The notes beneath the pieces were generated by a model. The model searched no databases and was not told the origin of the DNA. It worked only from the letters and a program-made list of their open reading frames with translations. The translations under genes were made by a program, and so were the position numbers. Positions 10,517 to 31,123 of a DNA stretch of 64,000 nucleotides are shown here, piece by piece. The stretch is from assembly GCA_019056785.1 (NCBI GenBank), contig DXJV01000068.1, positions 32,001 through 96,000 on the forward strand, given 5' to 3'. The DNA is from Candidatus Heimdallarchaeota archaeon (GTDB lineage Archaea > Asgardarchaeota > Heimdallarchaeia > JABLTI01). Every line of letters begins with the position of its first letter. The stretch's first letter is position 1.

Positions 10517-12223
10517 TTAAAAGCCTATTCGCTTTTTACTCAAAAATTGATCTTTAATTTTAGTGCAAAACTCTTTAGTTGCTATTCTTTCTCTTGCTAT
10601 TTTCCCATTCTCGAGCATAATAACTCTACTGTTTGGGATGAGTGATAGCAAATCATGAGTTACAACTATGGCTGAGGCGCCTGTACCCATAATATAATCT
10701 ACAAGGAGGCTCATTACTTTGTGTTTGTTCATTTCGTCTAGATTGGCAGTGGGCTCATCTAGAAGTAAAATCTCCGGTGCTTGCAATAATCCTAAGAGAA
10801 ATGAAGCTCTTTTTCTTTCTCCTAATGAAAATTTTGCGACATCTTGATCTGTGATTTCGTCTAATGTGAGAAAGTGAAGAAGAAAATCCTTTTCATAGAA
10901 TGCCCTTTCCTTTTGAGTCTTGTGAACATTAAGGAAATAATTGAGATTTTCATCAAGGGTCATAGAAGGATACAAATTAACATATTGAGATAAATAATAC
11001 ATTTTTTGAGCGCGAACTTTTTCAACAAGAGATTGATTTGAAGAAGAGATAGCCTTGCCAAAGAGCTCTAAAGAACCATTAAAATCCAAGTCCATCCCAG
11101 AAAGAATGTTCAAAAAAGTGGTCTTCCCAGAGCCTGAAGGCCCAATTAAAAACACCAATTCACTTGGAAGAAGTTGGAGATTTATCCCATCAAGGATAAG
11201 CTGATCATTCGGAGAATGATACCACTTTTGTAAATTCTTACATGCTAGGATGGGTGTTACCCCCTTCTTGTGCTTTTTTGGATGAAATCCTGAGATTTTT
11301 ACAAATTGAGGATGTTCTACTTCTTTAAACGCTTCTGAGCCTTGTGGATTCTCGAGGAAGACTTTCTTTATTTCGTAATCAATAACGAATTTTACTTTCT
11401 TATCAAGAGCTAAAAGTTCCTTTATACGATTTGGTAAGAAAAGATAAGAAAAGCTATCAATATGCGAGACAAATATTTCTTTTGTCTGATTTTCCTTTTC
11501 TTGCTCTCCTTCTAAAAGATGTTCATTCAAGTCTTCTTGGGTATACACAGCACCCAACCTACCATTGAAGATTAGAAATGATTCGGAGACAACAGAAAAG
11601 TAAACAGGATCATGGCTTACCACTAAAATAGTTGTGCCTTCTTGTTGGTTTATTGCTTTCAATAACTCAAGGATAACTTGTGTGTTTTTTTTATCAAGTT
11701 GCCCCGTAGGCTCGTCTGCCAGCAAAATAGGCGGATTCGTTATAAGAGCAACAGCAAGACTCACTCGCATGCTTTCTCCCATGGAGAGCTGTTTGGCACG
11801 ATGCTGAGAGAGATGTTTGATTTCCATTCTTTCTAATGCATCTTCTACTACCTTTTTACCTTTTTCCCTGCTTTCCCCTAACAAGCGAAGGGGGATCAAG
11901 AGGTTTTGTTCAACAGATAATTCCGGAAACAAATTATAGTGTGGCATTTGATTAAGAAAGCCAATATTTTGAAGCCGAAATTGGTACAATTTTTTTGGTG
12001 TTAGTAAATCAATATCTTGAGACAACACATTTACTTTGCCACTCGTTGGTTGTTCTAAACCACTTAGAATTCTTAAGAGTGTGGACTTTCCAGCTCCACT
12101 TGGACCGATGATGGAAACAAAACTACTTTCTTCAACTGCCAAATCACATCCACTTAATGCGACAATGGATCGACCCAACTTAGGATTTGGATAAATTTTA
12201 GTTATTGCCTCTAATTTAATCAT
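10517..12223 (-). CDS. ABC ATP-binding protein with two fused LolD/MacB-type NBDs (cassette A)
   Basis: Two Walker A (GPSGAGKST, GPSGSGKTT), two DEPT Walker B, two H-loops; signatures LSMGE and FSLGE. Confidence 0.92.
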   Translation of the reverse strand: MIKLEAITKIYPNPKLGRSIVALSGCDLAVEESSFVSIIGPSGAGKSTLLRILSGLEQPTSGKVNVLSQDIDLLTPKKLYQFRLQNIGFLNQMPHYNLFPELSVEQNLLIPLRLLGESREKGKKVVEDALERMEIKHLSQHRAKQLSMGESMRVSLAVALITNPPILLADEPTGQLDKKNTQVILELLKAINQQEGTTILVVSHDPVYFSVVSESFLIFNGRLGAVYTQEDLNEHLLEGEQEKENQTKEIFVSHIDSFSYLFLPNRIKELLALDKKVKFVIDYEIKKVFLENPQGSEAFKEVEHPQFVKISGFHPKKHKKGVTPILACKNLQKWYHSPNDQLILDGINLQLLPSELVFLIGPSGSGKTTFLNILSGMDLDFNGSLELFGKAISSSNQSLVEKVRAQKMYYLSQYVNLYPSMTLDENLNYFLNVHKTQKERAFYEKDFLLHFLTLDEITDQDVAKFSLGERKRASFLLGLLQAPEILLLDEPTANLDEMNKHKVMSLLVDYIMGTGASAIVVTHDLLSLIPNSRVIMLENGKIARERIATKEFCTKIKDQFLSKKRIGF

Positions 12224-15150
12224 CAGGTTTCCTCCCTTATTGATGGCTGGAAGTTTAAGAACTTCTTTAGATAGAAATACCGAATACTAACATCAATTCC
12301 AATTATAACTACTATTAGAACAGAAAGATAAACAGAAATCTTGGAAAAATAGGGGACTTCAAGAACCCAATTATCCGCCTTAACAAGGATCTTTAGGAGA
12401 AAAGTAAGAGTACCAATACCAGCGGCACAGCCAATTGGGAACATTAATACTAGGAGAAGGAGATACTCGAGTAAGAATCCTTTTGAGATGTTTCTAATTG
12501 GAGTACCCCGATAACGCAATACAAGTATCTTTTCGCGGCGGTTGTTAAGTTCCTCTCTAGTTAATACAATATTTGTAGTGAAAAAGCTTATCGTTGCAAA
12601 GACACCCGAGGTAATTGATAAAGCAAAAATGCTGGTAGAAAAGGTGGGCAAGTACTTTGGATACCAATCAATCCATGTTGTTGGCAAAAAAGAATAGCCA
12701 AGAGCATCAACTTCTTGTAAAAATTGCTTAACTTCTACATGCTTTTCAAGTTTTACAAGAACAGCTTCTTCAATTATAATAATCAAGATGTCTTTTTGGT
12801 GGAGAAGGATGGTTTTAAAACCCCCTTCTGTCATCACAAGAAATGGAACCGTTCTTCCCTCTTCGTACTGTGCGTCCATTAACTCTTGATCATTCAGAAG
12901 AATCGGAAAGCGGTTAAAAGTTCCCCAAACAGTAAAATTAACTTTCACGAATTCATTTTCTGAAGCTGAGAGATTGTTTATTCCTATGGTGAGCAGACTC
13001 TCTCCTTGTTCAACTTCAATTCTATTGTTAAGAAAATCATCTTTTGATTGCGTTAGAATGGCATTAGTTCTATTGCAAAATTTCTCTAAACTATTTTTTG
13101 TGATCCCCATATGGTATTCTTTAGCATACGCTACAGTGGATCCAAAAGTGGGAGAAACAACAAGGACCTGGTAAACAACATTATAAATTGTCAATTGAAT
13201 AAAAGAATAATTGGCTGTAGAAGAGACCGAAGGAAGAGAAGAAACATCTGAAATAAAGCTCTCAGTAATAGAAGGTTGTTCTAAACGAAATGAAACATCA
13301 GAGCCGAGCATAAATCTTGCTGAATTAGCAGCGTGTTGAGTGAGGTAGGCCGGAAGAATGAACGATTGTAAGAGGATAAGGAAAAAGAGTCCAATAAAAA
13401 AAGATTGTTTTCTTTGATGCTGAAAGGCAAAAGACAGATTGTGTAATAAAATAGAGAATTTTTTAGAGACTTTTTCCCAGAGAGTTTGGGCGGTTGATAC
13501 CACTTTCAAGAGTAATATATTTATCAAAATAAAAAGAACGCAAACAACTACCATCGCAATAAAAAGATATGAAAAAGTGTTTAGAATGAAGCTTAAACTT
13601 GAAGTTAAATCTTCTTGAGCAAATAAAAATCTCTTTACTAGTAAAAAGGATGTTAACCCAATTAATCCAAACGTCGCCATTAAGCTGAAAATTAATAGCT
13701 GCATTTTCGATGTGTTTTTAGGATGAGTGGAGATAGAACTAAGGCGATTCGGGAAAGAAGCTTCAACTTGCTTGAGAAGAATTACCAAACTAATTAATGA
13801 AAAGCCAAAGATTATGATAAAAAACAGCAATGAGGGAAGAAAAACAGTAGCGAATGAAATGAGTTGTAATGGAAGAAAGTGTGATTTTAATAATAAGGTG
13901 ATTATCGCCAAATTACCATATGTTATAGGAAAGGCAAACAGAAGAGCGCAAAAAGCAGAAAGGGCCAACTCCAGAAATCGTGCCACTGAAAAAATTTTGA
14001 GAATGGTTTTTCTAGAAAAACCGCGAGTCAAAAAATTTGTGTAAATATCTGATGTTTTTAGAATGTTTGTCGAGACACTAAACCAAAGAATTGCTATTGA
14101 AAAAACTGTGACAAGGAGTCCAATTGCGATTAGACGGAACCACTGTTGCCGTATTTCACTTTTGAACGCCGCCATAAATTCAGCCAATTCTGGGCTCACG
14201 TTTGCGAAAAGCCCATGATAATAGGAGGGGCCTGAAAGTTTGGGCAAATTTTCTGCTGTCTTATAGAGTTCTTTTAAGTGAGAAATTTTGAAAGAAGAAA
14301 AATCATAAAGGAATTGGACATTAATGCTAATCTCAGAATATAATAATGCAGGGAAATAATGAAAGAAATCGGTTAGATAATCGATTGGGACTAAGAGTAA
14401 AGGGTGTTGAGAAATAAACCCCAAATTGCTACTTAAAGCGTGATGGAGAAAAGGATTTTCTGTGCTGAGTCTCCCTTCAAGGAGGAAATCATTCACTGAA
14501 AAATAGTTTGAGATACTAGCGTTTAAAGGGTTTATTAGAAAGGTGTTATTAATGAATACATCATCAATTTCTAAAGAAAATGGTAGAATAGAAATATTAT
14601 CCCCAATAGCGTAAGAATATTCGTACTCATCAGTTGGCAAATCGGTATTTCTCACCAAGATAACCTCATTATAGGCAACCGGCATCGTTTCGAAGGCAAA
14701 ATACTTGGAGGCTTGCATTAGAGTTTCATTTTCTAGGAACAGAACAGTTAGTGGTGCGAATGTTCCTTGTGCGAAAAATTGCATTTCTGCTTCGCATAAC
14801 ATTAATCGATCAGTTATATATCCTTCTAAGTTTGAATAAGAAATGATTTCTGTCACATCTTCGTCAATATTCTTTAGAAGGTCTGAGGGGATGTTGCTCG
14901 TGTTCGAAAGATAAGACTCACTCATCATGTAATACAGAGAATAATAGTCATCTTGTTCCAATGGGTGTAACGTTTGATATTCAGGTAAAAAAGAGGATTG
15001 CACACTTAGTCCGGTAAAAAGGGTAGGGAAGAATAAAAGGAAAGGAAGCATGAAACTTAAAAGATTAAAAGTTAATTGTCTCTTGTCACTAAAAGAAAAG
15101 GAAAATGCACTATAGAATAGTGCTTTGAAAGAGAGCTTTTCTTTGGACAT
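12223..15150 (-). CDS. FtsX/MacB-like ABC permease, doubled architecture (cassette A)
   Basis: Two TM/large extracellular loop/TM-bundle repeats, LGSDV and LRYRG-type motifs; 1-nt overlap with the ATPase. Confidence 0.8.
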   Translation of the reverse strand: MSKEKLSFKALFYSAFSFSFSDKRQLTFNLLSFMLPFLLFFPTLFTGLSVQSSFLPEYQTLHPLEQDDYYSLYYMMSESYLSNTSNIPSDLLKNIDEDVTEIISYSNLEGYITDRLMLCEAEMQFFAQGTFAPLTVLFLENETLMQASKYFAFETMPVAYNEVILVRNTDLPTDEYEYSYAIGDNISILPFSLEIDDVFINNTFLINPLNASISNYFSVNDFLLEGRLSTENPFLHHALSSNLGFISQHPLLLVPIDYLTDFFHYFPALLYSEISINVQFLYDFSSFKISHLKELYKTAENLPKLSGPSYYHGLFANVSPELAEFMAAFKSEIRQQWFRLIAIGLLVTVFSIAILWFSVSTNILKTSDIYTNFLTRGFSRKTILKIFSVARFLELALSAFCALLFAFPITYGNLAIITLLLKSHFLPLQLISFATVFLPSLLFFIIIFGFSLISLVILLKQVEASFPNRLSSISTHPKNTSKMQLLIFSLMATFGLIGLTSFLLVKRFLFAQEDLTSSLSFILNTFSYLFIAMVVVCVLFILINILLLKVVSTAQTLWEKVSKKFSILLHNLSFAFQHQRKQSFFIGLFFLILLQSFILPAYLTQHAANSARFMLGSDVSFRLEQPSITESFISDVSSLPSVSSTANYSFIQLTIYNVVYQVLVVSPTFGSTVAYAKEYHMGITKNSLEKFCNRTNAILTQSKDDFLNNRIEVEQGESLLTIGINNLSASENEFVKVNFTVWGTFNRFPILLNDQELMDAQYEEGRTVPFLVMTEGGFKTILLHQKDILIIIIEEAVLVKLEKHVEVKQFLQEVDALGYSFLPTTWIDWYPKYLPTFSTSIFALSITSGVFATISFFTTNIVLTREELNNRREKILVLRYRGTPIRNISKGFLLEYLLLLVLMFPIGCAAGIGTLTFLLKILVKADNWVLEVPYFSKISVYLSVLIVVIIGIDVSIRYFYLKKFLNFQPSIREET

Positions 15151-16595
15151 TAATTGCTTTCCCTCGGCCTTTTCTTTTTAAGGAAATAGAAGGTTAAACT
15201 TCCAATTAAGATTGATGGGGTTATAATCGAAGCAGTGATTATCAGCCGGAAATAAACGATCCTTATTGCTTTAATAAGGAATGGTTTTTTAATTTGGCTT
15301 GCAGCTGGTCCAAGGACACTAATAGCTGATATAATTTTAGACCCACCTCCAATAGAATGGTAGGGGGATGCATTTCCATAAATAAAACCTAGGAAGTACG
15401 AGTCAATAACCTCTTGGGTGTTAATATTCCACGAAAAACTACTATAAAATGGCTCATAATTTTCATCTAACCCTAAATCAACAAAATTCCAACTAGGGTT
15501 GTCCTCGGTTAGGTTATAACACCCCCTGTATAATCTAGGACCAATATGAGGCACATTCCTTAAATATAACAAGTTCACTTCGGAGCCATTCATCGCAACA
15601 TCAAAAAATTTTGGAGCAGTCTCGTAGTAAATCTCATTTGTAATATATTGGCCAAAAATTCCATAAGCATTTGTTGTAGTGCCCTGTAAAACAAATGTAT
15701 GTATTGTTTTATTATACTCAAAAAGGGCAAACTCTGATGAATAACCGATACTTGTAGGCAAAAAGTAGAAAAACTTGCCAGTGGTTTGATCGAAAAGCAA
15801 TCTCCCACTATTAATTTCATAATTTAGATAAGAGAATGAAATATTTATAGGGCTCATGAATGTTTGGGTAGTGAAATTAAAAGGTAAGAAGAGGTAATCG
15901 TCCTCTGCTGTAAGGTTTTTGAAGAGAAAATATGCGCAGTTAAGGGTTGTAGCATAGCAAGAGGAGACCGGCGTTATCTTTCCATTAAGTGTGAAAGTTT
16001 GTTTGTTTACCGTTGTACCTTTTATCTTCAGAGAAATTACTTCTGTTGCTTTACTCTCACTACTGATACTAGTAAGGAGAAAAACATTCTCGTTGTTCAA
16101 GAAGCGTATGCCAAGTAACTCTGGGTTGTAATAGTAATTCGAATATACATATTCATTGACATTTAAAAGAAAGATTTTTCTACTGAAATTTGTGGTGGCA
16201 TTGTAATAATAGTAATAATAATTGTGGTCGTATCTTTGATTGCTTTTGTTTTCTTCTGTTGCAAGATAAGCAACAGAAAAGGATTGATCTGCAAAAGCTG
16301 AGAAACATATTTCATTATTCAGATAAAACTCTTCTTGTATGATGTTTTTCTTAACTTTCCCCTCTTCAACTGAAAAGTGTATCAAGTCTTTTTTGTATTG
16401 TTGAATAGATGCATAAATCAAGTGAATGTTATTAGTACCAACCATTCCACCATAGATGCCAAATTCTCTATTCGATGTTACTACAATATTATTTAATGAC
16501 ATTGAAGTTGAAACAGCTAAAATTTCACAATTTGTCATTAAACAGATAGACATAAAAGCAATTCCCAGTAAGATTTTCTTTTCCATGCTTTTCAT
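15150..16595 (-). CDS. Secreted, C-terminally anchored beta-rich protein (cassette A accessory)
   Basis: Signal peptide, many NxS/T sequons, C-terminal TM plus KKKRPR; 1-nt overlap with the permease. Confidence 0.75.
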   Translation of the reverse strand: MKSMEKKILLGIAFMSICLMTNCEILAVSTSMSLNNIVVTSNREFGIYGGMVGTNNIHLIYASIQQYKKDLIHFSVEEGKVKKNIIQEEFYLNNEICFSAFADQSFSVAYLATEENKSNQRYDHNYYYYYYNATTNFSRKIFLLNVNEYVYSNYYYNPELLGIRFLNNENVFLLTSISSESKATEVISLKIKGTTVNKQTFTLNGKITPVSSCYATTLNCAYFLFKNLTAEDDYLFLPFNFTTQTFMSPINISFSYLNYEINSGRLLFDQTTGKFFYFLPTSIGYSSEFALFEYNKTIHTFVLQGTTTNAYGIFGQYITNEIYYETAPKFFDVAMNGSEVNLLYLRNVPHIGPRLYRGCYNLTEDNPSWNFVDLGLDENYEPFYSSFSWNINTQEVIDSYFLGFIYGNASPYHSIGGGSKIISAISVLGPAASQIKKPFLIKAIRIVYFRLIITASIITPSILIGSLTFYFLKKKRPRESN

Positions 16596-16659
16596 CTCTC
16601 ATTTAATTTTTACTTTTTTTCTATAAAGACCTTTTTAAAAAGAAATAAAACCTCCATTT

Positions 16660-17317
16660 TTACGGGGGCCAAGGATCAGGAAAAGTGACGTATGCTAAAA
16701 CATCCTCAATTTCATTGTCTGCTCCAGAGGAGAAATAGTCATCTATATGGCTCCAAAAAGAAGCCCAATCATCATGCGAAATATCCGCCATCGGTCCAGT
16801 AGGCATATTGATTGTCCCACCGCCAAGAGGCAATGGTATAACCGTTATTATAGAATTCCATTGTTGCGTATTGTGTGAATTGCCAGATACCGACTTTTAA
16901 ATCATCTCCTGCGCTTTCTCCGAAATTATATTTGTATGATTTGTCGCTATGAGAGCCATCATATACTGTTATTCGCATACTGAAATCGTTCCAGCTATCA
17001 CCATTAGAATTCGAAGCTACAATAATTAAAAAGTCCATGTAGTTTAAATATGGCATGAATGCTGAATCAGGTCCGCTTAAAGTCTCATAGATATCAAAAT
17101 CATCTTTTCCTGTAGTTTCATACGCGAAATACCTAGTTGCTTTTCCTCCTGTAGAAGGAACATCAACAAGTAAAATTAATACGCTGTCGCCATATAATCC
17201 AGACCCATTAAAATGAATCCGTATATTATCGACATAAGCTGAATTAACAAAAAAAGAATTCAAGCTAAGTATAGTCAATAATACGGCAAAGAGAACAAGA
17301 AATCTTTTCGTTTTCAT
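16660..17317 (-). pseudogene. Small secreted protein (cassette A cargo); ORF stops at 16772 but probably continues in the +1 frame to 16660
   Basis: Signal peptide MKTKRFLVLFAVLL, GGGAGG before ATG; after ...GGYFA* the shifted frame from 16773 reads DDWASFWSHIDDYFSSGADNEIEDVLAYVTFPDPWPP* with the same D/W/Y/F-rich composition. Confidence 0.6.
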
Positions 17318-17331
17318 TTTTTTCCTCCCAT

Positions 17332-17410
17332 AATTTTTCCTATTCCAAAACCAAGAATAGTTGTAAACACTAGGATTAATAAAAAAAAGGTTGTTTTCTT
17401 TTACGTAAAA
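17332..17410 (-). promoter_or_regulatory. Conserved cassette leader, copy A
   Basis: Reverse complement matches 27711-27791 with 4 substitutions and a 2-nt indel; contains palindrome TTTTACGTAAAA and TATA-like TTTATTAA. Confidence 0.9.
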
Positions 17411-17604
17411 AAAGCAAAACTTTTTTTAATTTTTGATAGCTATATCAAACAATTCTAAGAAATCATTGGTTCAAAATTAACTTAAGTATAAATTTTTTTG
17501 CGATTTTTATTTTGCATGATTTGAAGGACTTTTTTCTTCTCATCGCAACTATTTTAAAGAGAAAACGAGAGGGAAAAATAGAGCACAATTCATTTGTCTC
17601 TTAT

Positions 17605-17713
17605 GAGTCTGTAGCGCAGCTAGGATAGCGCGGCAGCCTTCTAAACGGCTCATGACGCAATCATGTTCGGGAGTCGTTGCAGGTCGAGGGTTCAAATCCC
17701 TCCAGACTCGCCA
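17605..17713 (+). tRNA. tRNA-Arg(UCU) with 31-nt intron and encoded CCA
   Basis: Acceptor GAGTCTG/CAGACTC, D-stem GCGC/GCGC, anticodon stem GCAGC/GTTGC with CT-TCT-A, T-arm GAGGG-TTCAAAT-CCCTC, GCCA then T-tract; intron ~17644-17674 or 17645-17675. Confidence 0.9.
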
Positions 17714-17727
17714 TTTTTCACTATAAG

Positions 17728-18456
17728 TCAAGCGTTCTTCTTAGGTTCTTTTCCGACTTTCTTCTTTGCTTTCTTTTCTTTCTGCTTTTTTTCGCTCTTC
17801 TTTTCCCCGGGGCGTTTTGTATTATATTTATAGCTAAAAGTTGTCACAATGTGAACAACTTTCTCTGCGACATAACTCATTTCTTGCAAGCTATCACGCA
17901 ATGAATTACCAATTAGTACTTCTGGGTCCTCAAATGAATATTCACACTTTCCTTCTACATCACAGAATTTGAATTCATAGAGCTCGCCGAGAAGTTTTTC
18001 GCACCCTTCTTTCAGCACTGCTGCTTTTTCCATTGCTAACTCGTAATCATCATAGAGTGCGTCAACATCTTCGTGCATTATTTTTGCTGTTTCAGAGATT
18101 TTTTTAAGGAGCTTCAAGAGACGTTTATAGTTCTCTTCTACGATTTGTTCTGCATATTCGGATAACAGCAATCGAACTTCTTTGCATTTCGACAACACTT
18201 CATTAATTCTTTGAAAGAGCTGGAATTTCTCGATCTCAATTTTTGTGTCCACTTGTCCATCTTGCATCAGTTTCAATAAAAGGTTTCGAACATTCTTCTC
18301 TTCCATCTCGAGGATTTCTAGCGTGTGGCAGGGTATTTTTGTGGAGTATTCAATATATAGTGCCTCAAAATATTTTGATGGGAGATAGGAGAATTGCAAT
18401 AATTTCTTCTCAATTTGTTTTTGAATTCCTCTGTAACCAAATAATCTACTAGCCAT
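17728..18456 (-). CDS. Divergent DUF47/PhoU-like helical protein with Lys-rich tail
   Basis: All-helical, directly downstream of PiT; ATG at 18456 lies just after the PiT stop (ORF opens at 18489). Confidence 0.6.
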   Translation of the reverse strand: MASRLFGYRGIQKQIEKKLLQFSYLPSKYFEALYIEYSTKIPCHTLEILEMEEKNVRNLLLKLMQDGQVDTKIEIEKFQLFQRINEVLSKCKEVRLLLSEYAEQIVEENYKRLLKLLKKISETAKIMHEDVDALYDDYELAMEKAAVLKEGCEKLLGELYEFKFCDVEGKCEYSFEDPEVLIGNSLRDSLQEMSYVAEKVVHIVTTFSYKYNTKRPGEKKSEKKQKEKKAKKKVGKEPKKNA

Positions 18457-18458
18457 GA

Positions 18459-19463
18459 TTAAAACAACCACCTTATTCCGTGATAGCATGCTACTGCAAT
18501 AATACCACTAATTAATGGCGTTAAAAGTACAAACAGCACAACCATCCGGATTGTTTTGAAATTTATCGGTTTATTCATCCCCATTCCCGCCCCCAGAAAA
18601 CTTGATACGAGGACCATTGTTCCTGAGACAGGAATACCCAATATAACTGCTGTAAAGACCACTAATGCTGCTGAGCCCTCTGTTACAAAAGCCGATTCCG
18701 GTGTTAGTTCCACAACCTCATTTCCTAAAGTTTTCAATACTTTCCAGCCAATAATGATCAACCCAAGCCCCAAACCTGCTCCTCCAATAAGTAAAGGAAT
18801 GCGCGAATACCAATAATCTGCGGCACCAACACGCCCTGTGGCAGTAAATAACGGGACAATGGGAGCAATTGCGTTGTTAATGTCATTACCTGCCCGTGAG
18901 AGCCCTGTCCAGACAACCATTAGAAGGAGAAACACACCAAAAACGGAGTTTGCTGTTTCATGTTGCCTTAAACTTCGCACGGTATTTTTTAGAATATATC
19001 TCACGAGTTTCATCAGTAAGAACGAGATGGTGAAGCCCAAAATCGGTGAAATAACCCAAGTGGTTAAAACCCTCCCCATTCCGGACCACCCCCACTCAAC
19101 TTTGTATCCCTGTGCAAAAGAAATGCCTAAGATAGCTCCTACGAGGGCTTCGGTAGAAGAAATAGGCAAACCAAAAACAGATGCAAGTATCAAACTGATG
19201 GACATAGCAACATAGATAGAAATGAGCACAGGGTCATCTTGCATGGGCAAATCAGGGGAAATGTTATTTCGCAATGTTTCGCCGACATTTTTAGAGAGAA
19301 AGAATCCGCCGATTATTGCGATTCCCGCGCCTAGGAATACCGCAGTACGAACTGTTAATCGTTTTACCCCCACTACTGAGGAAAACGTTTCATCATTAGC
19401 TCCAATAGCGAAGGCTAACATCAAGGAAACAATTACTATAACAATTAATATAACATCCACCAT
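18459..19463 (-). CDS. PiT family inorganic phosphate transporter
   Basis: GAND and GND signature motifs, GLPISST and GIPVSGT. Confidence 0.92.
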   Translation of the reverse strand: MVDVILIVIVIVSLMLAFAIGANDETFSSVVGVKRLTVRTAVFLGAGIAIIGGFFLSKNVGETLRNNISPDLPMQDDPVLISIYVAMSISLILASVFGLPISSTEALVGAILGISFAQGYKVEWGWSGMGRVLTTWVISPILGFTISFLLMKLVRYILKNTVRSLRQHETANSVFGVFLLLMVVWTGLSRAGNDINNAIAPIVPLFTATGRVGAADYWYSRIPLLIGGAGLGLGLIIIGWKVLKTLGNEVVELTPESAFVTEGSAALVVFTAVILGIPVSGTMVLVSSFLGAGMGMNKPINFKTIRMVVLFVLLTPLISGIIAVACYHGIRWLF

Positions 19464-19514
19464 TTTAAATCACTGGCTTGTTATTTCACTTTGTGTTCAA
19501 CTTCAATCTTCTTT

Positions 19515-20213
19515 TTAGACTTCGCTAATGACAATCGAACGCAAAACATCAGAGGCGTCTTCTGCCGCATTTGCAGCTAATTCAATATCTTTCATTGCAT
19601 GATCGAAAATATTCAATCCAGCAAAATTCTCTGCATAGTCTTTGTATTCAAAATAATGGTTTTTTAGTCGCGTATACAAGCCATCCATTTGATGCTCTAG
19701 AAAGCTGATTTCTGTAGTCAGGTCAATTGTTCGTTGAATGTCTTTGCGATATATGGATAGGGCTTCCGCCAGTTTATCTACTGCCATATTTAACAATTCA
19801 CAGCTTTTCATAATCTCCTCGAAAATATGTTTTGGCAATTTTACCTTATGCATGATTTGCACATTTATACCTGCCCTTTTTGCATTATTGGCGACCTCAT
19901 CAACCCGTTTAATAAATGTCAGAATATCAGCCCGGAGTTTTGGTTTTAGCGTTCCTTTAGTAAGTTCTAGCCACATGTCTGCCAGCAACTTATCTGCAGC
20001 GTTTTCTTCTGCTGACATTATCCCAATTTCTCTGTCAAGGTCGGTAAATTTTCCATCATACCATGCCTTAAATGCACGTGTTAAAGCTCTTGTGACAAGC
20101 TGGACGCGGGACAGATGTTCTGTCATTTTGTTCTGAATCTCTTGCTCGGCGCTTTTTCTGAAAAAACTACTGCGAAACTTCATAGCGTTCACCATAACTC
20201 GTTTGTCTTTCAT
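19515..20213 (-). CDS. DUF47 family phosphate transport regulator (PhoU-like)
   Basis: EENAAD, EHQMD, ANAAEDASD acidic helical motifs; upstream of PiT. Confidence 0.85.
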   Translation of the reverse strand: MKDKRVMVNAMKFRSSFFRKSAEQEIQNKMTEHLSRVQLVTRALTRAFKAWYDGKFTDLDREIGIMSAEENAADKLLADMWLELTKGTLKPKLRADILTFIKRVDEVANNAKRAGINVQIMHKVKLPKHIFEEIMKSCELLNMAVDKLAEALSIYRKDIQRTIDLTTEISFLEHQMDGLYTRLKNHYFEYKDYAENFAGLNIFDHAMKDIELAANAAEDASDVLRSIVISEV

Positions 20214-20317
20214 TTATTCATTTTGCCTAAAGGTGTTAAGAATAAAAAGATTGTTGTGGTAATTTCAAAAAAAATGGTCTTCTATCTAAAACGCGTAAAT
20301 GAAAAAAAGCAAGTGAA

Positions 20318-20686
20318 CTATCTCTTCTTAAGGCTTAGTGCTACAATGACTCCCAGGAATGTTAAGCCACTAAATGCTATTGGCAAGTATGTCGCTAGAA
20401 AGTTTATTTGCCCAACATAAGGATAAAATTCAATCTCAAGGTAGAGAGGATCTTGTTGGACGGCGGTAAAACCTTGGCCATTATCAATTTCAAAATAAAT
20501 CCCTGTGGCGATTTGAGCTACTTTCGTGTCAATACTCATATTATAGTGCCCATTATTATTGCTATATTTAGTTAACCAGATGTAGCCAAGATTACCATAA
20601 CTTTCTTGTTCTTCCGATGCCAATTGCTCATGATCCCAAAAATTCAATAATAAAGCATTGCAGGAATGGCCTATAGTATACAACAC
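20318..20686 (-). CDS. Hypothetical protein, probably a 5'-truncated remnant of a membrane-anchored surface protein
   Basis: C-terminal TM plus KKR but no signal peptide. Confidence 0.45.
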   Translation of the reverse strand: MLYTIGHSCNALLLNFWDHEQLASEEQESYGNLGYIWLTKYSNNNGHYNMSIDTKVAQIATGIYFEIDNGQGFTAVQQDPLYLEIEFYPYVGQINFLATYLPIAFSGLTFLGVIVALSLKKR

Positions 20687-20899
20687 TTCGGCGATGTTTT
20701 AAGTTTCTTCTTTAAAAGCTTAAGCAAAAACACCTTTTTCCCTCAAAAAGAAAGACAAGATCCGGCTCTTTCCTGGTTTACCTTTTTTTTTCAAGAAGTA
20801 CAAAACCCCTTACTTATCTATTTGCTTAACTTCCCAAAAGATAATAAAGGACAACTATTTATTTTGCATATTGATTAATTCCTTTCTTGGTGCTAAACC

Positions 20900-21781
20900 A
20901 TGGTCTCGCCGGATAATAGCATTAAGCGTGATGAGAATGATGGGGCTGACCAAAGAGCCCTGGCAATTGCTCTTGCTTCTGATCTATCTGACCGGCTGGA
21001 AATTGTGAGCGAGGAGTTTTTAAAGACCGAAAAAACTAAGATGGAAACAATCAACCTCTCCCATTGGTACAACGAAAAACGCGTCTTAGCTGGCATTAGT
21101 TTGCCTATTTTTAAGAATAAAGTTACCGCTATTATCGGCCCCTCAGGGTGTGGCAAGTCAACTTTTCTTCGCGACTTGAACCGTATGAATGACATTATCC
21201 CCACTGCCCGTATTTCGGGGGAAGTTTTATTGGATGGGCAAAATATCTATGACAATAAAATAGATGTTGTTTCCCTCCGAAAAAGAGTTGGCATGGTTTT
21301 TCAAAGACCAAACCCTTTTCCTATGTCTATTGAGAATAATGTCGCCTATGGTCCATATATCCATGGTGCACAACCTGAGGAGTTAGCAGCTATCGTTGAA
21401 AGCACCCTACGAAAAGCTGCTCTTTGGGAGGAGGTTCGCGACCGTTTACAGGACAATGCTTTATCCCTTTCGGGAGGACAGCAACAAAGGCTCTGTATTG
21501 CCCGTGCTTTGTCTGTTGAACCAGAAGTTATTTTATTTGATGAACCCTGTAGTGCTCTTGACCCGCATGCAACGGCGAAAATAGAAGACCTTATTACTAA
21601 TTTGAAAAAAGATTACACTGTGGTCATCGTTACCCATAATATGCAGCAGGCCGCCCGAGTGTCTGATTACACAACTTTCTTTAATTTTGGTGAGCTGATT
21701 GAATTTAATACAACGAGGAAGATCTTCAAGTCACCAGAACGAAAGATGACGGAAGAATATATTTCCGGGCGTTTTGGCTAA
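20900..21781 (+). CDS. pstB: Phosphate ABC transporter ATPase (copy 1)
   Basis: [41 protein letters not shown]. Confidence 0.96.
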
Positions 21782-21798
21782 TAAAGTGGTGGAACCTC

Positions 21799-22674
21799 TT
21801 GAATATTGTGAATAAAAAACTCTTAGCGAAGGAAACCAAGGAGGAGGACATTGTACCAGTTGATATGCGCGCTTTATTCAAAGATGAAACTGAAATTATT
21901 CCTGAAAAGCTTGTGAAAAAATATGAAATCCGAATGGCTGTCAAGAAACTGAGCCATTGGTATGGAAATAATCATGTTCTCTCCGGCATTTCGCTCCCCA
22001 TTTTCAAAAATAAAGTCACTGCTATTATTGGCCCCTCAGGCTGCGGAAAATCAACATTCCTTCGCGACTTGAACCGAATGAATGACCTTATCAAGATTTC
22101 GAGAGTTCGTGGAAAGGTCTATCTCGATGGCATTAACATTTATAGTGAAGGTATTGATCTAATCCAATTACGAAAGAAAATTGGCATGGTCTTCCAAAAA
22201 CCCAACCCCTTTCCCATGTCCATTCGTGATAATATTACCTATGGCCCCATTATTCATGGAATAAATAAGGCTTATCTTCCAGGGCTTATTAAAAGCTATT
22301 TAGTAAAAGCTGCTCTTTGGGATGAAGTTCATGACCGCTTATCTGAGAGTGCTTTCTCACTTTCGGGAGGGCAACAACAAAGATTATGCATTGCACGAGC
22401 TTTGTCAATCGAGCCGGAAGTTATCTTATTTGATGAACCCTGTAGCGCTCTCGACCCACATGCAACGGCAAAAATAGAGGATTTAATTACGAAATTGAAA
22501 GCCGAGTACACCGTGGTAATTGTCACTCATAACATGCAACAAGCGGCCCGGGTATCTGATTTCACGGCTTTCTTCAATTTGGGTGAGCTAATAGAATTTA
22601 ACTCTACCAGAGATCTCTTTCGAAGCCCCATAAGAAAAATAACAGAGGAATATATTTCCGGGCGTTTTGGCTAG
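21799..22674 (+). CDS. pstB: Phosphate ABC transporter ATPase (copy 2)
   Basis: Same PstB motifs; different N-terminal extension. Confidence 0.96.
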
Positions 22675-22689
22675 ATAGTTTTAAAATAA

Positions 22690-23406
22690 TTGCTGACTAA
22701 AAATAATGATAATAAATTGGTGAAAATATTGAATGAAACACGAAAAAGCTTTGGTGGTACTATTCGTTTCAAAGAACTGATGGATGAACTCAATAGTTAC
22801 CTTGGAAAGCTGACCGATTTAGTTATTGAAATGATAGAAAAAGGACATAAAGCACTCATTGAAGATGATGAGGGCTTATTTAAGAAAATTGAGGAAAACC
22901 TTTGCAAGGTTCATGAGCTTTCTTATCAAGTAGAAGACAGCGTCCAAAGCAGTTTGGCACTTCACCAACCGTTTGCAAGTGACCTTCGGTATATCTTATC
23001 AACTTTGAAAATCACCAACGAAATTCACCGCTCAGCACACGATGCAGTTCACATTGCCAATAGTACCACCTATGTTGATATTGCATTAAATAAGGAACTT
23101 ATCAAACGTGTGGTTGAATTAGCTAAGCGCGCGTCTCTAATGTTTGAGAAGAGCATTGATGCTTTTCGCCACCGGAAAGAACTTGATATTACGGAATGGA
23201 AAAAATTGGATGATCGCGTGGATTCACTCCACGCCAAACTTATCGATGACATCATCGCAAAAATCCAAAAAGAACCTTCTTGGGCACGAGCAGGTATGAG
23301 TCTTGTTTTGGCAACCAGATATATCGAACGGATAGCCGACCACGCCTGTAATATTGTCGAAGAAAGTATTTTTGTGGTGACAAGTAAACGCGTTAAAATC
23401 GAATGA
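22690..23406 (+). CDS. phoU: Phosphate uptake regulator PhoU
   Basis: HQPFASDLR, RYIERIADHACNI motifs. Confidence 0.93.
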   Translation: MLTKNNDNKLVKILNETRKSFGGTIRFKELMDELNSYLGKLTDLVIEMIEKGHKALIEDDEGLFKKIEENLCKVHELSYQVEDSVQSSLALHQPFASDLRYILSTLKITNEIHRSAHDAVHIANSTTYVDIALNKELIKRVVELAKRASLMFEKSIDAFRHRKELDITEWKKLDDRVDSLHAKLIDDIIAKIQKEPSWARAGMSLVLATRYIERIADHACNIVEESIFVVTSKRVKIE

Positions 23407-23484
23407 ATCACTCTTGGAGTCTATCCAGGAAACCATACACAAAATTATTATGTAAAAAACCAATCAACAGAACACAAAAAAATC

Positions 23485-24423
23485 GTGACAAAAATTGGTG
23501 AGAAAAAAATGTCCTTTGGTCGTCCTTCCAAACAAACCGTCTGGATTTTAATTGCATTAATACCGATAGCTGCTAGCTCGGGCTTCTTTCTGGGCTGGGC
23601 ACTCTATGGGGGTCATGGTGGTTTTGCAACCGTCACGCTTGAAATAAAAGGTTCAACAACGGTGGAACCAATTTGTCTTGCGACAGCGCCCATATTTGAA
23701 GCGACGCACCCAGGAATTCAGATTGGCATTTCTGCCGCAGGTTCAGGCACAGGCATTTCAGCTGTAATAGATGGAACCGCAGACATTGGAATGTCTTCTC
23801 GGCAAGTCAAAACCGAAGAAAATATCACGGCACACGAAGAAACTAATTTGTGGTTACGCTCCTTTCCGATCGCAAAAGATGCACTGGTAGTTATAACAAA
23901 TGCTGCAACAACAATCACACCTTTCGATATGAATCTCACGCTACTTCGAATGATCTTCAATGGCACCATCAGCAGTTGGGATCATCCTTCATTAGCCGGC
24001 CACGGTTTAACAGGAGCCATCCAAGTTATCGCCAGAGAATCAACCTCAGGAACACGCACAGCCTTCGATGAAATGGTCATGGGAGATGATGATTATGCAT
24101 CTGACTTCCAAGAAAAGGTTTCAAATCAAGAAGTACATGATGAAATTGCCAGCAATCCTCAAGCAATAGGCTATATTGGACTTGCATACATGAGCCCTAG
24201 TGTAAAAGATGTCCTCATTGATGGCATTAATGCTTCTAAAGAACATGTTCGGGATGGTAGTTATGAGCTTTCCCGGAGCCTTTTTCTGGTGACTCTTGGC
24301 ATCCCTAATGTTGATTCGCTCATCTGGGAATATGTACAATGGCATTTGAGTCCAACAGCTCAAAATTATGTTGAAGAACTTGGCTATATTGCTGTTCAAG
24401 CTAAGAGAGATGATTTTATTTAG
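23485..24423 (+). CDS. pstS: Phosphate-binding protein PstS
   Basis: KGSTTV, GSGTG, DIGMSSR, RESTSGT motifs; N-terminal TM anchor; true start may be ATG 23509. Confidence 0.94.
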   Translation: MTKIGEKKMSFGRPSKQTVWILIALIPIAASSGFFLGWALYGGHGGFATVTLEIKGSTTVEPICLATAPIFEATHPGIQIGISAAGSGTGISAVIDGTADIGMSSRQVKTEENITAHEETNLWLRSFPIAKDALVVITNAATTITPFDMNLTLLRMIFNGTISSWDHPSLAGHGLTGAIQVIARESTSGTRTAFDEMVMGDDDYASDFQEKVSNQEVHDEIASNPQAIGYIGLAYMSPSVKDVLIDGINASKEHVRDGSYELSRSLFLVTLGIPNVDSLIWEYVQWHLSPTAQNYVEELGYIAVQAKRDDFI

Positions 24424-24461
24424 ACGAGGAGGCGATAAACATATCTGAACCTCAAGACAAG

Positions 24462-25439
24462 TTGTCGGCTACCAAAAAAGAACTGGACGAAGCAAAAATG
24501 TCAGAACAACAACAAACCAGTGACGACTTAGCAAGCGATGAAGAAACCATTATCGCTATTGGAAAACAAAAAATCAGTTTTCAACATGTTGTTCTACTTC
24601 TTGCGGCAAGTTTGTCGGTGATTATTGTTGTTTTGGTGTTTATTTTCACTGTTCTCGAGGGATATAGGATCATCCCGGAATATGGTTTTATTGATTTTTT
24701 GTTTGGGCATGAATGGGACAGTCCACATGAGCAATATGGCATTCTTCCCATGATTGTTGGCACCATTCTTGTCGTTCTTATCGCTGCAGTAATAGCAATT
24801 CCTGTTGGTACAATGGCAGCAATGTATCTTTCAGAGATCGCCCCTGAAATCGTCCGGAAAATTATGAAGCCAATTATTGAGATATTAGCAAGCATCCCTT
24901 CGATAATCTATGGATTTATAGGTTGGCGAACGTTGGTATTATTTTTACAAAACCAATTGGGGTTCAAGTCTGGAAGGACGGCATTCACAGCTGGGGTCGT
25001 GCTTTCAATAATGATACTTCCAACAATAATTACTATCGCCGATGATTCCCTTAAGGCAGTTCCTCGAGCGTATCGTGAAGGCTCGTTTGCTCTAGGCGCT
25101 ACCAATTGGCAGACCATCCGTAAAGTCGTCTTGCCAGCCTCGAGTTCAGGCTTGACTGCAGCGTACATTCTTGGCTTTGGGAGAGCCATTGGAGAAACAA
25201 TGGCAGTATATTTTCTGGCAGGTGGAGGCAAGAATCTACAATGGAACATTTTCAGAGGTGTTGATACTTTGACTTCTTTGATTTTGAAACAACTGCCAGA
25301 AGCATCTATTGGAAGCGTAGAATACCATGCCATCTTTGGTGCCGCATGTGTCCTTTTTCTCATAACATTTTGTGTTAATCTCATAGGCGACTTGCTTATC
25401 AGACGTTTCTCTAAAAAATTCAGAGGTGCAAGTAAATGA
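24462..25439 (+). CDS. pstC: Phosphate ABC permease PstC
   Basis: LASIPSIIYG, GRAIGETMAV motifs. Confidence 0.95.
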   Translation: MSATKKELDEAKMSEQQQTSDDLASDEETIIAIGKQKISFQHVVLLLAASLSVIIVVLVFIFTVLEGYRIIPEYGFIDFLFGHEWDSPHEQYGILPMIVGTILVVLIAAVIAIPVGTMAAMYLSEIAPEIVRKIMKPIIEILASIPSIIYGFIGWRTLVLFLQNQLGFKSGRTAFTAGVVLSIMILPTIITIADDSLKAVPRAYREGSFALGATNWQTIRKVVLPASSSGLTAAYILGFGRAIGETMAVYFLAGGGKNLQWNIFRGVDTLTSLILKQLPEASIGSVEYHAIFGAACVLFLITFCVNLIGDLLIRRFSKKFRGASK

Positions 25440-26368
25440 CTAAGGAAAAATCTGACAACTCCCTAACTGAAAAGGATGTTTCTTTCGATGACTTGCCGAA
25501 GAGGAAGCGTTTGCTTAATCCTAAACAGTCACAAAAAATCGGCTATAGCATGCTGCTTTCTTCAATCATTTTTATCGTCATTGTGTTGGGAGTTTTTCTT
25601 GGCTATATTATTATCAACGGTTTGAAAAGCATTAATTTCAAATTCATTTTCTCGAGTTATAATCCAACAGTAGGGCGTTATGGTTTATTCCCATCCATTA
25701 TGGGTACCTTTTTACTCATTATTGGCTCAATTGCTATCGCAGCGCCCCTTGGTTTGCTTGCTGCGATTTATCTTACAGAATATACTAAGGGAGGCATAAT
25801 TGTTTCTATAATTGACCAAGGCATTAATAATCTCGCAGGCGTACCTTCTGTGGTCATTGGTGTTTTTGGTTATGCATTATTTAGTGTTTATCTTAAGATG
25901 GGTTCATCTATGATTGCTGCTTGGCTGACGCTTGCTTGTATGCTCTTACCAACAATTATTAGAACATCCCAGGAAGCACTTCGAAGTGTGCCTCGTACAT
26001 ATCGGGAAGGTAGCTTTGCTCTTGGTGCAACCAAATGGCGAACAATTCGGTATGTTGTTCTTCCCCCTGCTTTGCCAGGGATAACAACTGGTATAATCCT
26101 TTCCCTAGGGCGTGCAGCTGGCGAGACTGCAGCGGTACTCTTCGTTGGTTCTGGCGTTTTTTTCAACAGATTTTTTAATGGTTTTAGTGGAACGTTCATG
26201 AACTTGCCCAATTTCCTATTAACACTTTACCGCTCAGCTGGGGGGTGGGAACAAGTGGGGGATGTAATGTGGCTAACAGCATTTGTTTTGATTTTAATTG
26301 TCTTCTCCTTCAATGCAGTGGCAATTGTTATAAGAAATCGTTCGGAAAAGCAACGCGGCAGCTATTAA
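25436..26368 (+). CDS. pstA: Phosphate ABC permease PstA
   Basis: LAGVPSVVIG, GRAAGETA motifs; ATGA overlap with pstC. Confidence 0.95.
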   Translation: MTKEKSDNSLTEKDVSFDDLPKRKRLLNPKQSQKIGYSMLLSSIIFIVIVLGVFLGYIIINGLKSINFKFIFSSYNPTVGRYGLFPSIMGTFLLIIGSIAIAAPLGLLAAIYLTEYTKGGIIVSIIDQGINNLAGVPSVVIGVFGYALFSVYLKMGSSMIAAWLTLACMLLPTIIRTSQEALRSVPRTYREGSFALGATKWRTIRYVVLPPALPGITTGIILSLGRAAGETAAVLFVGSGVFFNRFFNGFSGTFMNLPNFLLTLYRSAGGWEQVGDVMWLTAFVLILIVFSFNAVAIVIRNRSEKQRGSY

Positions 26369-26412
26369 ACCTTCGCGGCAATCTCGAGAGAAAAAAAAAG
26401 AGAAAAGTGGAA

Positions 26413-27648
26413 TTAAATCCCGTTAGGGCTAACTCCAATGGGATTACTCGAGACACAAAATTCTATGCAATAGCGACAGTTTCCAGCATCCCAGTAATTC
26501 CACCACCACCAACCATTATTAGCAAAGTCGAGCATGGAATTTGCCCACCAGTTAAATGGTGAAAGTTGGTCATCAGAATCCGGCCACGAATCATCCTCCC
26601 AAGCTTGCGTGTTAATCTTTAAGGGGTGCGTTTTGGGGATGAGAACATATGCCATTGTCTTTTTCCAGTAGATATATCCTGCGCCATCACGTTTCACTAT
26701 ACCATAGAAATCTTCAGTCACATAGCCGGACCCACCGTAACCGTCACCGACATACCATTTCATGTACATTTCGCCTGCCCCTTTTGGCCAGGGGTCAGAA
26801 TCGATTTCATAATAAACGCCAACAAGGTTAATTTTCACATAATAACAATCGTTTGGATCCCAATCGCTTGTCTCAACAACATAAGTGTCACTATCTTCAT
26901 AGAGGTCTGAGGGGGAGACACCATAGGCTGTTTCCCAGGACCAGTTATCACCATCAGGATCTAGGTCAATGCCAAACAAGTCTTTGTATGCAGCCCAAGC
27001 AAGTTCAGAACAATACCAACCATCAACACCAGAAAGACTATTTGTGCCATCAATTTGCTTTGAGGTCCAACCCCAATCATAGACTGGTCCAACAGGATAA
27101 CCATCAAGACCGCCATCGAGTTTAGATTTGCACCAGTCAACTGCTTGTTGTCTTTGAGCGTTAGTTAGCCCCGCAACACGGATTGCAACTGCTATCTCAG
27201 CATGCTCATTCACGCCTTCAAGCCACGTCGAATAGCCCAAACCATTTCCGGCATTGTCACTTTTAGTCGAATGGATAACATATGGTGTTCCGACAGGCAT
27301 CCAACAATGCTGATCTCTATCCCAAATTTGCTCGCCCGGCTGAACGAAGCCAGCAAAAATTTCCGTGTGTGAAAACTCACCAGGGATCAAATAATCGAAA
27401 AATGATCCTGCTGTTCCAAGCAAGATAATATCTCCCGGTACCAACCCATTATATAATAAGCTGTTTTTCCCATCATCAGCAAATTTAAGGTCAGCTTGGG
27501 CCCCCTCTGTACTTTGAGTTGATAGCCTAACTAAATTGCCCGGCATGGGAATTTGATTGATATTAATGGAAAGCGGGATTATCAAAAGGATCATTCCACT
27601 CAAAAATAGGAATAAGAATATTGATCGTTTTTTATCTCCTATCATCAA
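26413..27648 (-). CDS. Secreted permuted papain-like NlpC/P60 (YaeF/YiiX-like) enzyme with C-terminal beta-sandwich domain
   Basis: Signal/TM, PGDIIL...FSHTEIF (His), YCSELAWAAY (Cys), VSPSDL; His-before-Cys order marks the permuted family. Confidence 0.85.
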   Translation of the reverse strand: MMIGDKKRSIFLFLFLSGMILLIIPLSININQIPMPGNLVRLSTQSTEGAQADLKFADDGKNSLLYNGLVPGDIILLGTAGSFFDYLIPGEFSHTEIFAGFVQPGEQIWDRDQHCWMPVGTPYVIHSTKSDNAGNGLGYSTWLEGVNEHAEIAVAIRVAGLTNAQRQQAVDWCKSKLDGGLDGYPVGPVYDWGWTSKQIDGTNSLSGVDGWYCSELAWAAYKDLFGIDLDPDGDNWSWETAYGVSPSDLYEDSDTYVVETSDWDPNDCYYVKINLVGVYYEIDSDPWPKGAGEMYMKWYVGDGYGGSGYVTEDFYGIVKRDGAGYIYWKKTMAYVLIPKTHPLKINTQAWEDDSWPDSDDQLSPFNWWANSMLDFANNGWWWWNYWDAGNCRYCIEFCVSSNPIGVSPNGI

Positions 27649-27710
27649 AAACCTTCCTTAGAGTTAATTGCAAAGCTATATCTGTAAAAGAACCTTAAAG
27701 GGTTCCACTT

Positions 27711-27791
27711 TTTTACGTAAAAGAAAACAACCTTTTTATTTTATTAATCCCAGCGTTTACAACCATTCTTAGTTTTGGAATAGGAAAAATT
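27711..27791 (+). promoter_or_regulatory. Conserved cassette leader, copy B
   Basis: Near-identical to the reverse complement of 17332-17410. Confidence 0.9.
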
Positions 27792-27804
27792 GTGAGTTGG
27801 AAAA

Positions 27805-28335
27805 ATGAATCGTAGAAAGAAAGTTGTTTTAACGGCATTAGTTTTAAGCATTATGACATTGGCAGGTCTGGGGGCACTGAGGACTATTTCAGACACCATC
27901 ACTTTAAAGAAAATCAGAGTTTACGTTTATTCCATAGATATTTATGACGACTTCCGGACAGGAAGCTATGAACTATTGCTTAGCTTCAAGTTTATGCGTC
28001 ATTTTGGCGATTTTGGCGGGCATCTTATTAATAACGATGACCAATATCCTAAAACAAACACCTACTTTGAAAGTTGTGAAACCTTCGATGGCGGAGTTGA
28101 AGAGATAAAATATTGTTATGAATACTTTGATTACAGCTATTGTAAACCATTAGGCAAGGCAAATGGCATCGTTCTGGTAACTTTTCGTGTAAAGAAAAAT
28201 GTCTTTAGCCATGAAGATCTCGTTTGGGGCTTAGGTGGGCTAGATGATACTTATGGCGTATACTACGAGAAAACCCTCTATTTTAAAAAATATAATGGAG
28301 GATTAATAATAAAGTATATGTTTTTAGAGGTATAA
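27805..28335 (+). CDS. Small secreted protein (cassette B cargo)
   Basis: Basic N-terminus plus hydrophobic signal, Tyr/Phe-rich mature region, 176 aa. Confidence 0.8.
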   Translation: MNRRKKVVLTALVLSIMTLAGLGALRTISDTITLKKIRVYVYSIDIYDDFRTGSYELLLSFKFMRHFGDFGGHLINNDDQYPKTNTYFESCETFDGGVEEIKYCYEYFDYSYCKPLGKANGIVLVTFRVKKNVFSHEDLVWGLGGLDDTYGVYYEKTLYFKKYNGGLIIKYMFLEV

Positions 28336-28413
28336 AGTGAAAAATAACCCCCCCTCTTTTCCTTTTTTATAAAAAGAGAAGGATGGTAGAAAAGAAATTG
28401 TGAGGTGTAATAA

Positions 28414-31122: not shown

Positions 31123-31123
31123 G

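Follow-up and report, generated by a model that had tools for sequence, protein, structure and literature searches.

A near-exact repeat heading two FtsX/MacB-like ABC transporter operons in a Heimdallarchaeota archaeon is probably a shared promoter-leader module

Archaeal promoters are organized around BRE and TATA elements, with palindromic transcription factor sites located beside or over the transcription start, as exemplified by the operators of Phr and of the TrmB and Lrp families. In paralogous gene families, upstream DNA can also evolve in concert through gene conversion, as in bacterial surface-protein families that combine conserved upstream or leader regions with divergent coding parts. 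At the level of RNA, 5'-terminal stem-loops stabilize bacterial mRNAs, the ompA leader being an example. In yet other systems, such as fimS and the capsule promoters of Bacteroides, promoters reside on invertible segments that are flanked by inverted repeats. The locus described here resembles each of these systems in some respects and differs from each in others.

The analysis concerns a 64,000-nucleotide stretch (hereafter, the window; positions 32,001 to 96,000, forward strand, of contig DXJV01000068.1, assembly GCA_019056785.1) from Candidatus Heimdallarchaeota archaeon, and coordinates refer to the window unless another contig or locus is named. A preliminary description of this DNA had reported an approximately 80-nt leader that is duplicated almost exactly, with 4 transitions and a 2-nt indel, from a perfect 12-bp palindrome to about 14 nt before the ATG. 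The alignment bears this out: 77 of the 83 aligned positions match (92.8%), the differences are 4 transitions and one 2-nt indel located within a T-run, and in both copies identity sets in at the palindrome TTTTACGTAAAA and fades ~14 nt 5' of the start codon. The genome-wide BLASTn search that was proposed at the same time finds exactly two copies of the unit in the entire assembly (2.87 Mb in 102 contigs, 82.5% complete), with an E value of 1.7e-25 against the whole assembly. The two copies constitute an inverted pair approximately 10.3 kb apart (pairs I1 and I2 of the repeat search, with 10.2-10.3 kb between the arms). The copies and the start codons that follow them are:

17329..17412, minus strand: promoter-leader unit, copy A, at the head of operon A (93% identity with copy B)
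27709..27791, plus strand: promoter-leader unit, copy B, at the head of operon B
17317, minus strand: ATG of A1, the first gene of operon A
27805, plus strand: ATG of B1, the first gene of operon B

In the 5' to 3' direction, the unit consists of the palindrome TTTTACGTAAAA, a T-rich, TATA-like box, the dyad CTATTCT-N7-GGAATAG, and a GGAGG ribosome-binding site within the purine-rich stretch that closes the unit (GGAGG itself is found in copy A). The individual elements are:

17399..17410, no strand assigned: palindrome TTTTACGTAAAA of copy A, a candidate regulator site ~20-25 bp upstream of the TATA-like box
27711..27722, no strand assigned: palindrome TTTTACGTAAAA of copy B, the core of GGTT-N10-ACGT-N10-AACC at 27697-27732 (pair I4)
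17376..17388, minus strand: T-run and predicted TATA-like box TTTTTTTTATTAA of copy A, as read from the sequence
27733..27747, plus strand: T-run and predicted TATA-like box TTTTTATTTTATTAA of copy B, with the locus-specific 2-nt indel
17340..17360, minus strand: dyad or small hairpin CTATTCT-TGGTTTT-GGAATAG of copy A, 7 pairs and a 7-nt loop
27763..27783, plus strand: dyad of copy B, CCATTCT-TAGTTTT-GGAATAG, in which a strain-specific T-to-C change creates a C.A mismatch and weakens the stem
17324..17328, minus strand: GGAGG ribosome-binding site of A1, 6 nt before the ATG

The palindrome of copy A, like that of copy B, is the core of a longer dyad, an imperfect one in this case (pair I3). 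The A/T-rich boxes lie 58-72 nt before the ATG in both copies, which leaves room for a transcription start ~26-28 nt downstream, and the leaders of related operons carry TTTAAATA, TTTATTAA or TTTTATAA at the equivalent place; the T-rich box is a candidate TATA box. A passage of PMC8553660 places the archaeal TATA box ~26-28 nt upstream of the transcription start. By this rule, the choice of octamer for the box determines where transcription would start, on the opening base of the dyad or within its loop, and the same choice decides whether the dyad would act as an RNA hairpin or as a DNA operator. The unit thus resembles known archaeal promoters in that an A/T-rich box is suitably spaced from a gene with a ribosome-binding site, a perfect 12-bp palindrome lies ~20-25 bp upstream of that box, and a second dyad is located near the expected start. 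The differences are that in the window the unit as a whole is found twice, at 93% identity, before two operons, and that the palindrome matches none of the operators with which it was compared.

The repeat was originally described as preceding two unrelated genes. This holds for the first genes themselves: A1 and B1 show no homology by BLASTP, and a profile-profile comparison gives a probability of 1.3%. It does not hold for the operons that these genes open, which share their architecture and encode ATPases that are 32-34% identical between A and B. Both operons read outward from the segment between the copies:

10517..17317, minus strand: operon A (A1, A2, A3, A4)
16772-17317, minus strand: A1, 181 aa, frameshifted, with a signal-peptide-like N-terminus
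15150-16595, minus strand: A2, 481 aa
12223-15150, minus strand: A3, 975 aa, FtsX-like permease (weak FtsX match)
10517-12223, minus strand: A4, 568 aa, two fused ABC ATPase domains
27805..32496, plus strand: operon B (B1-B4)
27805-28335, plus strand: B1, 176 aa
28414-31122, plus strand: B2, 902-aa permease
31124-31834, plus strand: B3, ABC ATPase of the LolD/FtsE/MacB-like type
31825-32496, plus strand: B4, ABC ATPase of the LolD/FtsE/MacB-like type
17413..27708, no strand assigned: the 10.3-kb segment between the copies, with a pst/phoU/PHO4 phosphate cluster

The common plan of the two operons includes a small exported protein, a permease of ~900-975 amino acids similar to FtsX and MacB, and ABC ATPases that resemble the LolD/FtsE/bacteriocin-exporter type, i.e., the partners of FtsX/MacB-like permeases. 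The permeases A3 and B2 yield no BLASTP alignment with each other, searches of NCBIfam and PDB sequences detect no matches for either the permeases or the small proteins, and the AlphaFold model of A1 has a mean pLDDT of 44 and is unusable. Operons A and B are thus analogous systems whose first genes are unrelated by sequence. Near the end of A1 (16779-16781, minus strand), the window carries a one-base T insertion, GGATATTTCGC as against GGATATTCGC in a sister genome (~96% DNA identity), which shifts the last 39 codons, so that the predicted protein is 181 amino acids long in the window and 218 amino acids long in the sister. In copy B, the ribosome-site region (27794-27800) reads GAGTTGG in the window's strain and GAGAGG in all other B copies, and position 27764 of the dyad is C only in the window's B copy and T in all other B copies and in the related-species contig L056 discussed below. 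Together, the frameshift in A1 and the two changes in the B leader (GAGTTGG and the C.A mismatch) suggest that both operons may be decaying in the lineage of the window.

The segment between the copies encodes an intron-bearing tRNA, divergent from operon A; a 253-aa protein without a family match; PHO4; PhoU_div; two pstB; phoU; pstS; pstC; pstA; and an exported Peptidase_C92 that is divergent from operon B. The tRNA gene (17605-17710, plus strand) is matched by Rfam at 53 bits and contains an insertion of ~31 nt after the anticodon loop; the loop can be read as CU-UCU-AA, which corresponds to tRNA-Arg(UCU), and ARAGORN reports no tRNA anywhere in the window despite the Rfam match. The two tandem pstB-like ATPase genes (21061-21780 and 21954-22673) are 76-79% identical at the DNA level over most of their length and 90% identical in the last 40 nt. 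Control of the operons by a Pho system, which the adjacency of phosphate genes could bring to mind, is unsupported: a BLAST search of the assembly shows no part of the unit in the pst promoters, and the A-type operons of a related genome, G010, adjoin PfkB and topoisomerase genes rather than pst genes.

Evidence on the constraint that acts on the unit comes from L056, a contig of a related species with 72-79% DNA identity to the window, mostly over genes. Between L056 and the window, the Peptidase_C92 and PHO4 genes agree at 36-44% of their fourfold-degenerate sites, so that these sites are saturated, and the 60 nt upstream of the palindrome as well as the flanking intergenic DNA are unalignable. 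Nevertheless, the stretch that reaches from CTTTTTACG through the T-run matches at 31 of 31 positions, far above the neutral level and in the orthologous position. The 3' part of the unit is largely kept as well (GGAATAGGA...GAGGAAAAAAATG, including TTACAACTATT, TTTGGAATAGGA and GAGGAAAAAAATG). Full identity in the face of saturated fourfold sites indicates purifying selection, which would act on the 5' 31 nt of the unit. In L056, a deletion that extends from codon 13 of B1 as far as the tail of B4 has removed operon B and spared its leader, and operon A is missing altogether, along with its leader, with the tRNA gene and the phosphate cluster retained (the sites of operon loss are at 9780-10000 and 20791-20884 of L056). 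Since the 5' block has outlived operon B, its function may lie instead, or additionally, with the divergent Peptidase_C92 gene; the palindrome is located roughly midway between two outward-facing A/T-rich boxes. A Prismane gene is called at 653 aa in L056, where it runs off the end of the locus, as opposed to fragments of 115, 43 and 60 aa in the sister genome.

Operons of the A type are present in four other species of the genus (A3 is 54-56% identical to that of the window) and those of the B type in eight other species (B2, 26-41%), which implies that the split between the two types predates the genus. BLAST does not match the leader of the window to the orthologous A-type leaders of the related genomes G008 and G010, in which only the general plan, the GGAATA stem arm and the ribosome site, kept as TGGAG/GGAGG, are recognizable. 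Because orthologous leaders no longer align, the 93% match between A and B must stem from a later copying of one leader onto the other operon rather than from the old duplication of the operons. The stem arm GGAATA(G/A) is common to the unit of the window and the A-type leaders of G008 and G010, whereas the closest B-type orthologue (G004) contains an unrelated stem; this tentatively suggests that the copying proceeded from A to B.

A second case of a shared leader is found in G010. Here, two paralogous operons of the B type, located 23 kb apart on contig C24, have first genes that are 28% identical and a 124-nt leader that is 81% identical (L016 773-896 and L026 789-912), with the last ~70 nt almost identical between the copies. 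The identity begins at an upstream CGACAAAAA motif, which is followed by a TATA-like box, an 11-bp stem (CTAGTAATCAG-TTTTT-CTGATTATTAG) and a ribosome site, so that the sequence is unrelated to the unit of the window and the plan is alike. Of 16 leaders of the operon family in other genomes, 7 contain the motif CGACAAWAA (five independent lineages), compared with a genome rate of 0.009 per 200 nt. It lies 88-154 nt before the first gene (loci L034, L036, L041, L011, L016, L026 and L022), and in those leaders in which a TATA-like box can be clearly recognized, the box is ~17-27 nt downstream of the motif; in L011, it forms an 11-bp inverted pair. Thus, the operon family appears to have a common promoter design with an upstream motif, the place of which would be taken by the palindrome in the species group of the window. 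Of the interpretations offered in the preliminary description, that of a shared operator-promoter-5'UTR unit accordingly emerges as the best supported, given the position of the repeat, the 31 nt kept in L056, and the recurrence of the plan in other species.

Comparison of strains over the 97-99 nt from the palindrome to the ATG, including the window, the sister genome and a set of strains that are 98% identical to the window, gives the following counts:

B copy of the sister genome and A copy of the window (paralogues): 1 substitution, 1 indel
B copy of the sister genome and B copy of the window (orthologues): 10 substitutions, 1 indel
B copy of the 98%-identical strains and B copy of the window: 7 substitutions, 0 indels

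For scale, B1 and the adjacent peptidase gene retain 95-98% identity at fourfold sites between the 98%-identical strains and the window. That paralogues are closer than orthologues fits gene conversion between the copies, in a comparison that turns on approximately ten variable sites. With L056 as the outgroup, several of the changes specific to the B copy of the window (the stem mismatch; GAGAGG to GAGTTGG) appear to be derived, and the same is the case for most of the A/B differences; an ancestral state in which A and B were identical, followed by fast decay of the B leader in the window's strain, could explain the strain data equally well. Every B copy of the species group carries the 2-nt indel, which neither the A copies nor L056 possess, and such locus specificity implies that any conversion tracts were short. 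A passage of PMC11276520 describes efficient gene conversion in a haloarchaeon. In common with families that undergo concerted 5' evolution, the unit shows much greater similarity in the non-coding 5' region than in the coding sequences, abrupt limits to the identity, and paralogues that resemble each other more than orthologues do. It differs from them in that there are only two copies, these head whole transporter operons, the part coding for the signal peptide is not shared, and informative sites are few.

These observations raise the question of whether the identity of A and B is a mere by-product of recent ectopic gene conversion, with two independent promoters, no shared regulator and no selection for sharing. 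The sharp boundaries and the pattern across strains are compatible with such an origin, as is the proximity of the copies in both known cases, 10.3 kb apart in the window and 23 kb apart on one contig in G010. However, conversion alone leaves unexplained the 31 of 31 identical positions in L056, where the syntenic A site contains neither the operon nor the leader and neutral sites are saturated. Furthermore, in the G010 leaders the spacers have diverged while the motif, the TATA box and the hairpin are kept, which is the footprint of selection. We therefore consider conversion unaccompanied by selection to be an unlikely explanation. The original proposal was that conservation above that of the coding regions implied either selection or recent conversion; both seem to act, selection being indicated by L056 and conversion suggested by the excess similarity of paralogues.

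The second dyad noted in the preliminary description is indeed present in the sequence, and a stable RNA structure is not demonstrable, with z scores no better than -1.4. The hairpin of copy A has a folding energy of -6.4 kcal/mol (z = -1.4), which is unexceptional relative to shuffled sequences; over both copies and both strands, z ranges from -1.4 to +0.8, and for the hairpins from -0.2 to -1.4. Searched over the whole window at the gathering threshold, Rfam yields no match other than the unrelated tRNA, and at E values up to 10, only chance-level matches (11-19 bits) are obtained for 27600-27900. A known cis-regulatory RNA or riboswitch can accordingly be rejected, in the sense that no curated covariance model matches in the window. 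A broader possibility is that the conserved part is mainly an RNA element, i.e., a 5'-terminal stem-loop or leader that stabilizes the mRNA or binds a protein, a small RNA or a ligand, and that this RNA requirement accounts for the near-total conservation of bases. Most of the operons that open with a small exported protein possess a 7-11-bp stem ~20-25 nt before the start codon, with G.T pairs in several of these stems. In the A-type leaders of G008 and G010, the similar stem TTATTTC-N7-GGAATAA shows one compensatory change from A-T to G-C and one change from A-T to G.T, so that covariation amounts to a single compensatory pair. In both cases of shared leaders, the transcribed 3' part is the most nearly identical block. 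Nevertheless, besides the lack of an Rfam family, folding energies are indistinguishable from those of shuffled sequences, and the leaders of the operon family fold no better than control leaders (19 versus 944 leaders, p = 0.42). Moreover, the best-conserved 31 nt, as defined by L056, lie upstream of the TATA-like box and hence are probably untranscribed, and the alternative TATA assignment puts the transcription start inside the dyad. A stem-loop of the ompA type is comparable in that the short stem lies near the predicted 5' end and is followed by a purine-rich stretch and a ribosome site, and differs in that the stem in the window is weak and its presence in RNA is a prediction. A primarily RNA-level function of the unit thus seems decidedly unlikely.

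The inverted arrangement of the copies also called for an assessment of recombination, either inversion of the 10.3-kb phosphate segment or exchange of variable first genes; the original proposal had been a recombination site for cassette exchange. The segment is flanked by 83-bp inverted repeats, and the mosaic structure of the A-type operons of G008 and G010 (L034 and L036), in which the leader (86%) and A3 (85% at the amino acid level) are conserved and A1 (40%) and A2 (50%) are divergent, would fit homologous replacement. The fast divergence of A1 and A2 is explained equally well by diversifying selection on exported proteins. In G008, a partial duplicate of A1 is located just upstream (L034 2097-2384). 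Against recombination, the segment has the same orientation in more than ten contigs from different samples, in the sister genome and in L056, and inversion would leave each leader with the same following gene. No recombinase, integrase or invertase domain was detected among the scanned or precomputed genes between and beside the copies, where the few ORFs without a family encode proteins of 253, 122 and 70 aa (inside the segment) and 629 aa (beyond operon B). With fimS and the Bacteroides capsule promoters the locus shares inverted repeats that overlap promoter regions; it is unlike them in that the repeats enclose 10.3 kb of housekeeping phosphate genes, no recombinase is found, a single orientation is seen, and inversion would switch nothing. 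With one orientation in the assembled contigs, two copies, and no recombinase domain among the scanned or precomputed genes, a site-specific recombination site is unsupported, and a role of the copies in recombination of either kind is very improbable.

A related concern was that the element might be a MITE or a comparable small mobile repeat whose insertion ahead of two genes was fortuitous. A short non-coding repeat with a palindrome would be consistent with this. However, the search for dispersed copies found none: the unit occurs twice in the assembly, both times before an operon start and in the same register relative to the start codon, and is absent from 40 related genomes and, beyond the same species, from the metagenome collection. 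The DNA search of the 40 relatives returned only short, chance-level matches, the best of which (in G001) falls where two convergent genes end and has no related operon in its vicinity, and a scan with a 22-mer pattern detected one extra contig of the same species and one chance match in metagenomes and chance matches in two bacteria among species genomes. Terminal inverted repeats and target duplications are lacking, and the sole palindrome is an internal one located at the 5' edge. A mobile origin is hardly credible.

Whether the palindrome marks a wider regulon can be judged from its frequency. The 12-mer has 4 exact copies in the genome compared with ~0.8 expected; two of these are the copies of the unit, and of the two others, one lies inside a gene and one is part of a long, terminator-like palindrome. 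The 10-mer occurs 9 times compared with ~8 expected. These genome-wide counts lend no support to a regulon. A gene-poor part of contig C11 contains, at ~129718-129741, a near-perfect 23-bp palindrome, CCACTTTTTACGTAAAAAAGTGG, with a T-run after it; this palindrome has both the ACGT core and the CCACTTTTT flank in common with copy B and looks like a terminator hairpin.

Taken together, these results make it probable that the repeat is a shared promoter-leader module of two type VII (FtsX/MacB-like) ABC transporter operons that is under selection and has been partly homogenized by conversion. Under this interpretation, the palindrome TTTTACGTAAAA would be the site of a putative transcription factor; the T-rich, TATA-like box 20-25 bp downstream of it would drive the start of transcription; and a short dyad or stem-loop, positioned at the expected start or close to it, would be followed by the GGAGG ribosome site. 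The leader of one operon, tentatively that of A, would have been copied onto the other before the split from the L056 species, and the copies would since have been kept nearly identical by purifying selection and occasional conversion between the inverted copies. Given that the copies are kept alike, both operons would be expected to answer to the same regulator. The kind of feature is ordinary, a shared promoter before two related operons, and the locus is a new instance of that known kind.

A more far-reaching interpretation, which we regard as possible but doubtful, is that in Heimdallarchaeia, whole promoter-leader cassettes are repeatedly transplanted among paralogous operons of the FtsX/MacB type and held identical because a lineage-specific factor, either a protein or a small RNA, reads most of the unit, so that common control requires the whole cassette. 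Its basis is that the phenomenon is seen twice, in two species and with unrelated leader sequences. Gene regulation in Asgard archaea is little known, and the locus offers a compact, strongly conserved and directly testable promoter-leader unit. It also exemplifies the copying of a regulatory module from one operon to another and its subsequent maintenance, which has occurred twice independently within the genus. If cassettes are indeed transplanted in the proposed manner, the palindrome with the ACGT core, and likewise the CGACAAWAA motif, would belong to the first candidate operators of any Asgard archaeon.
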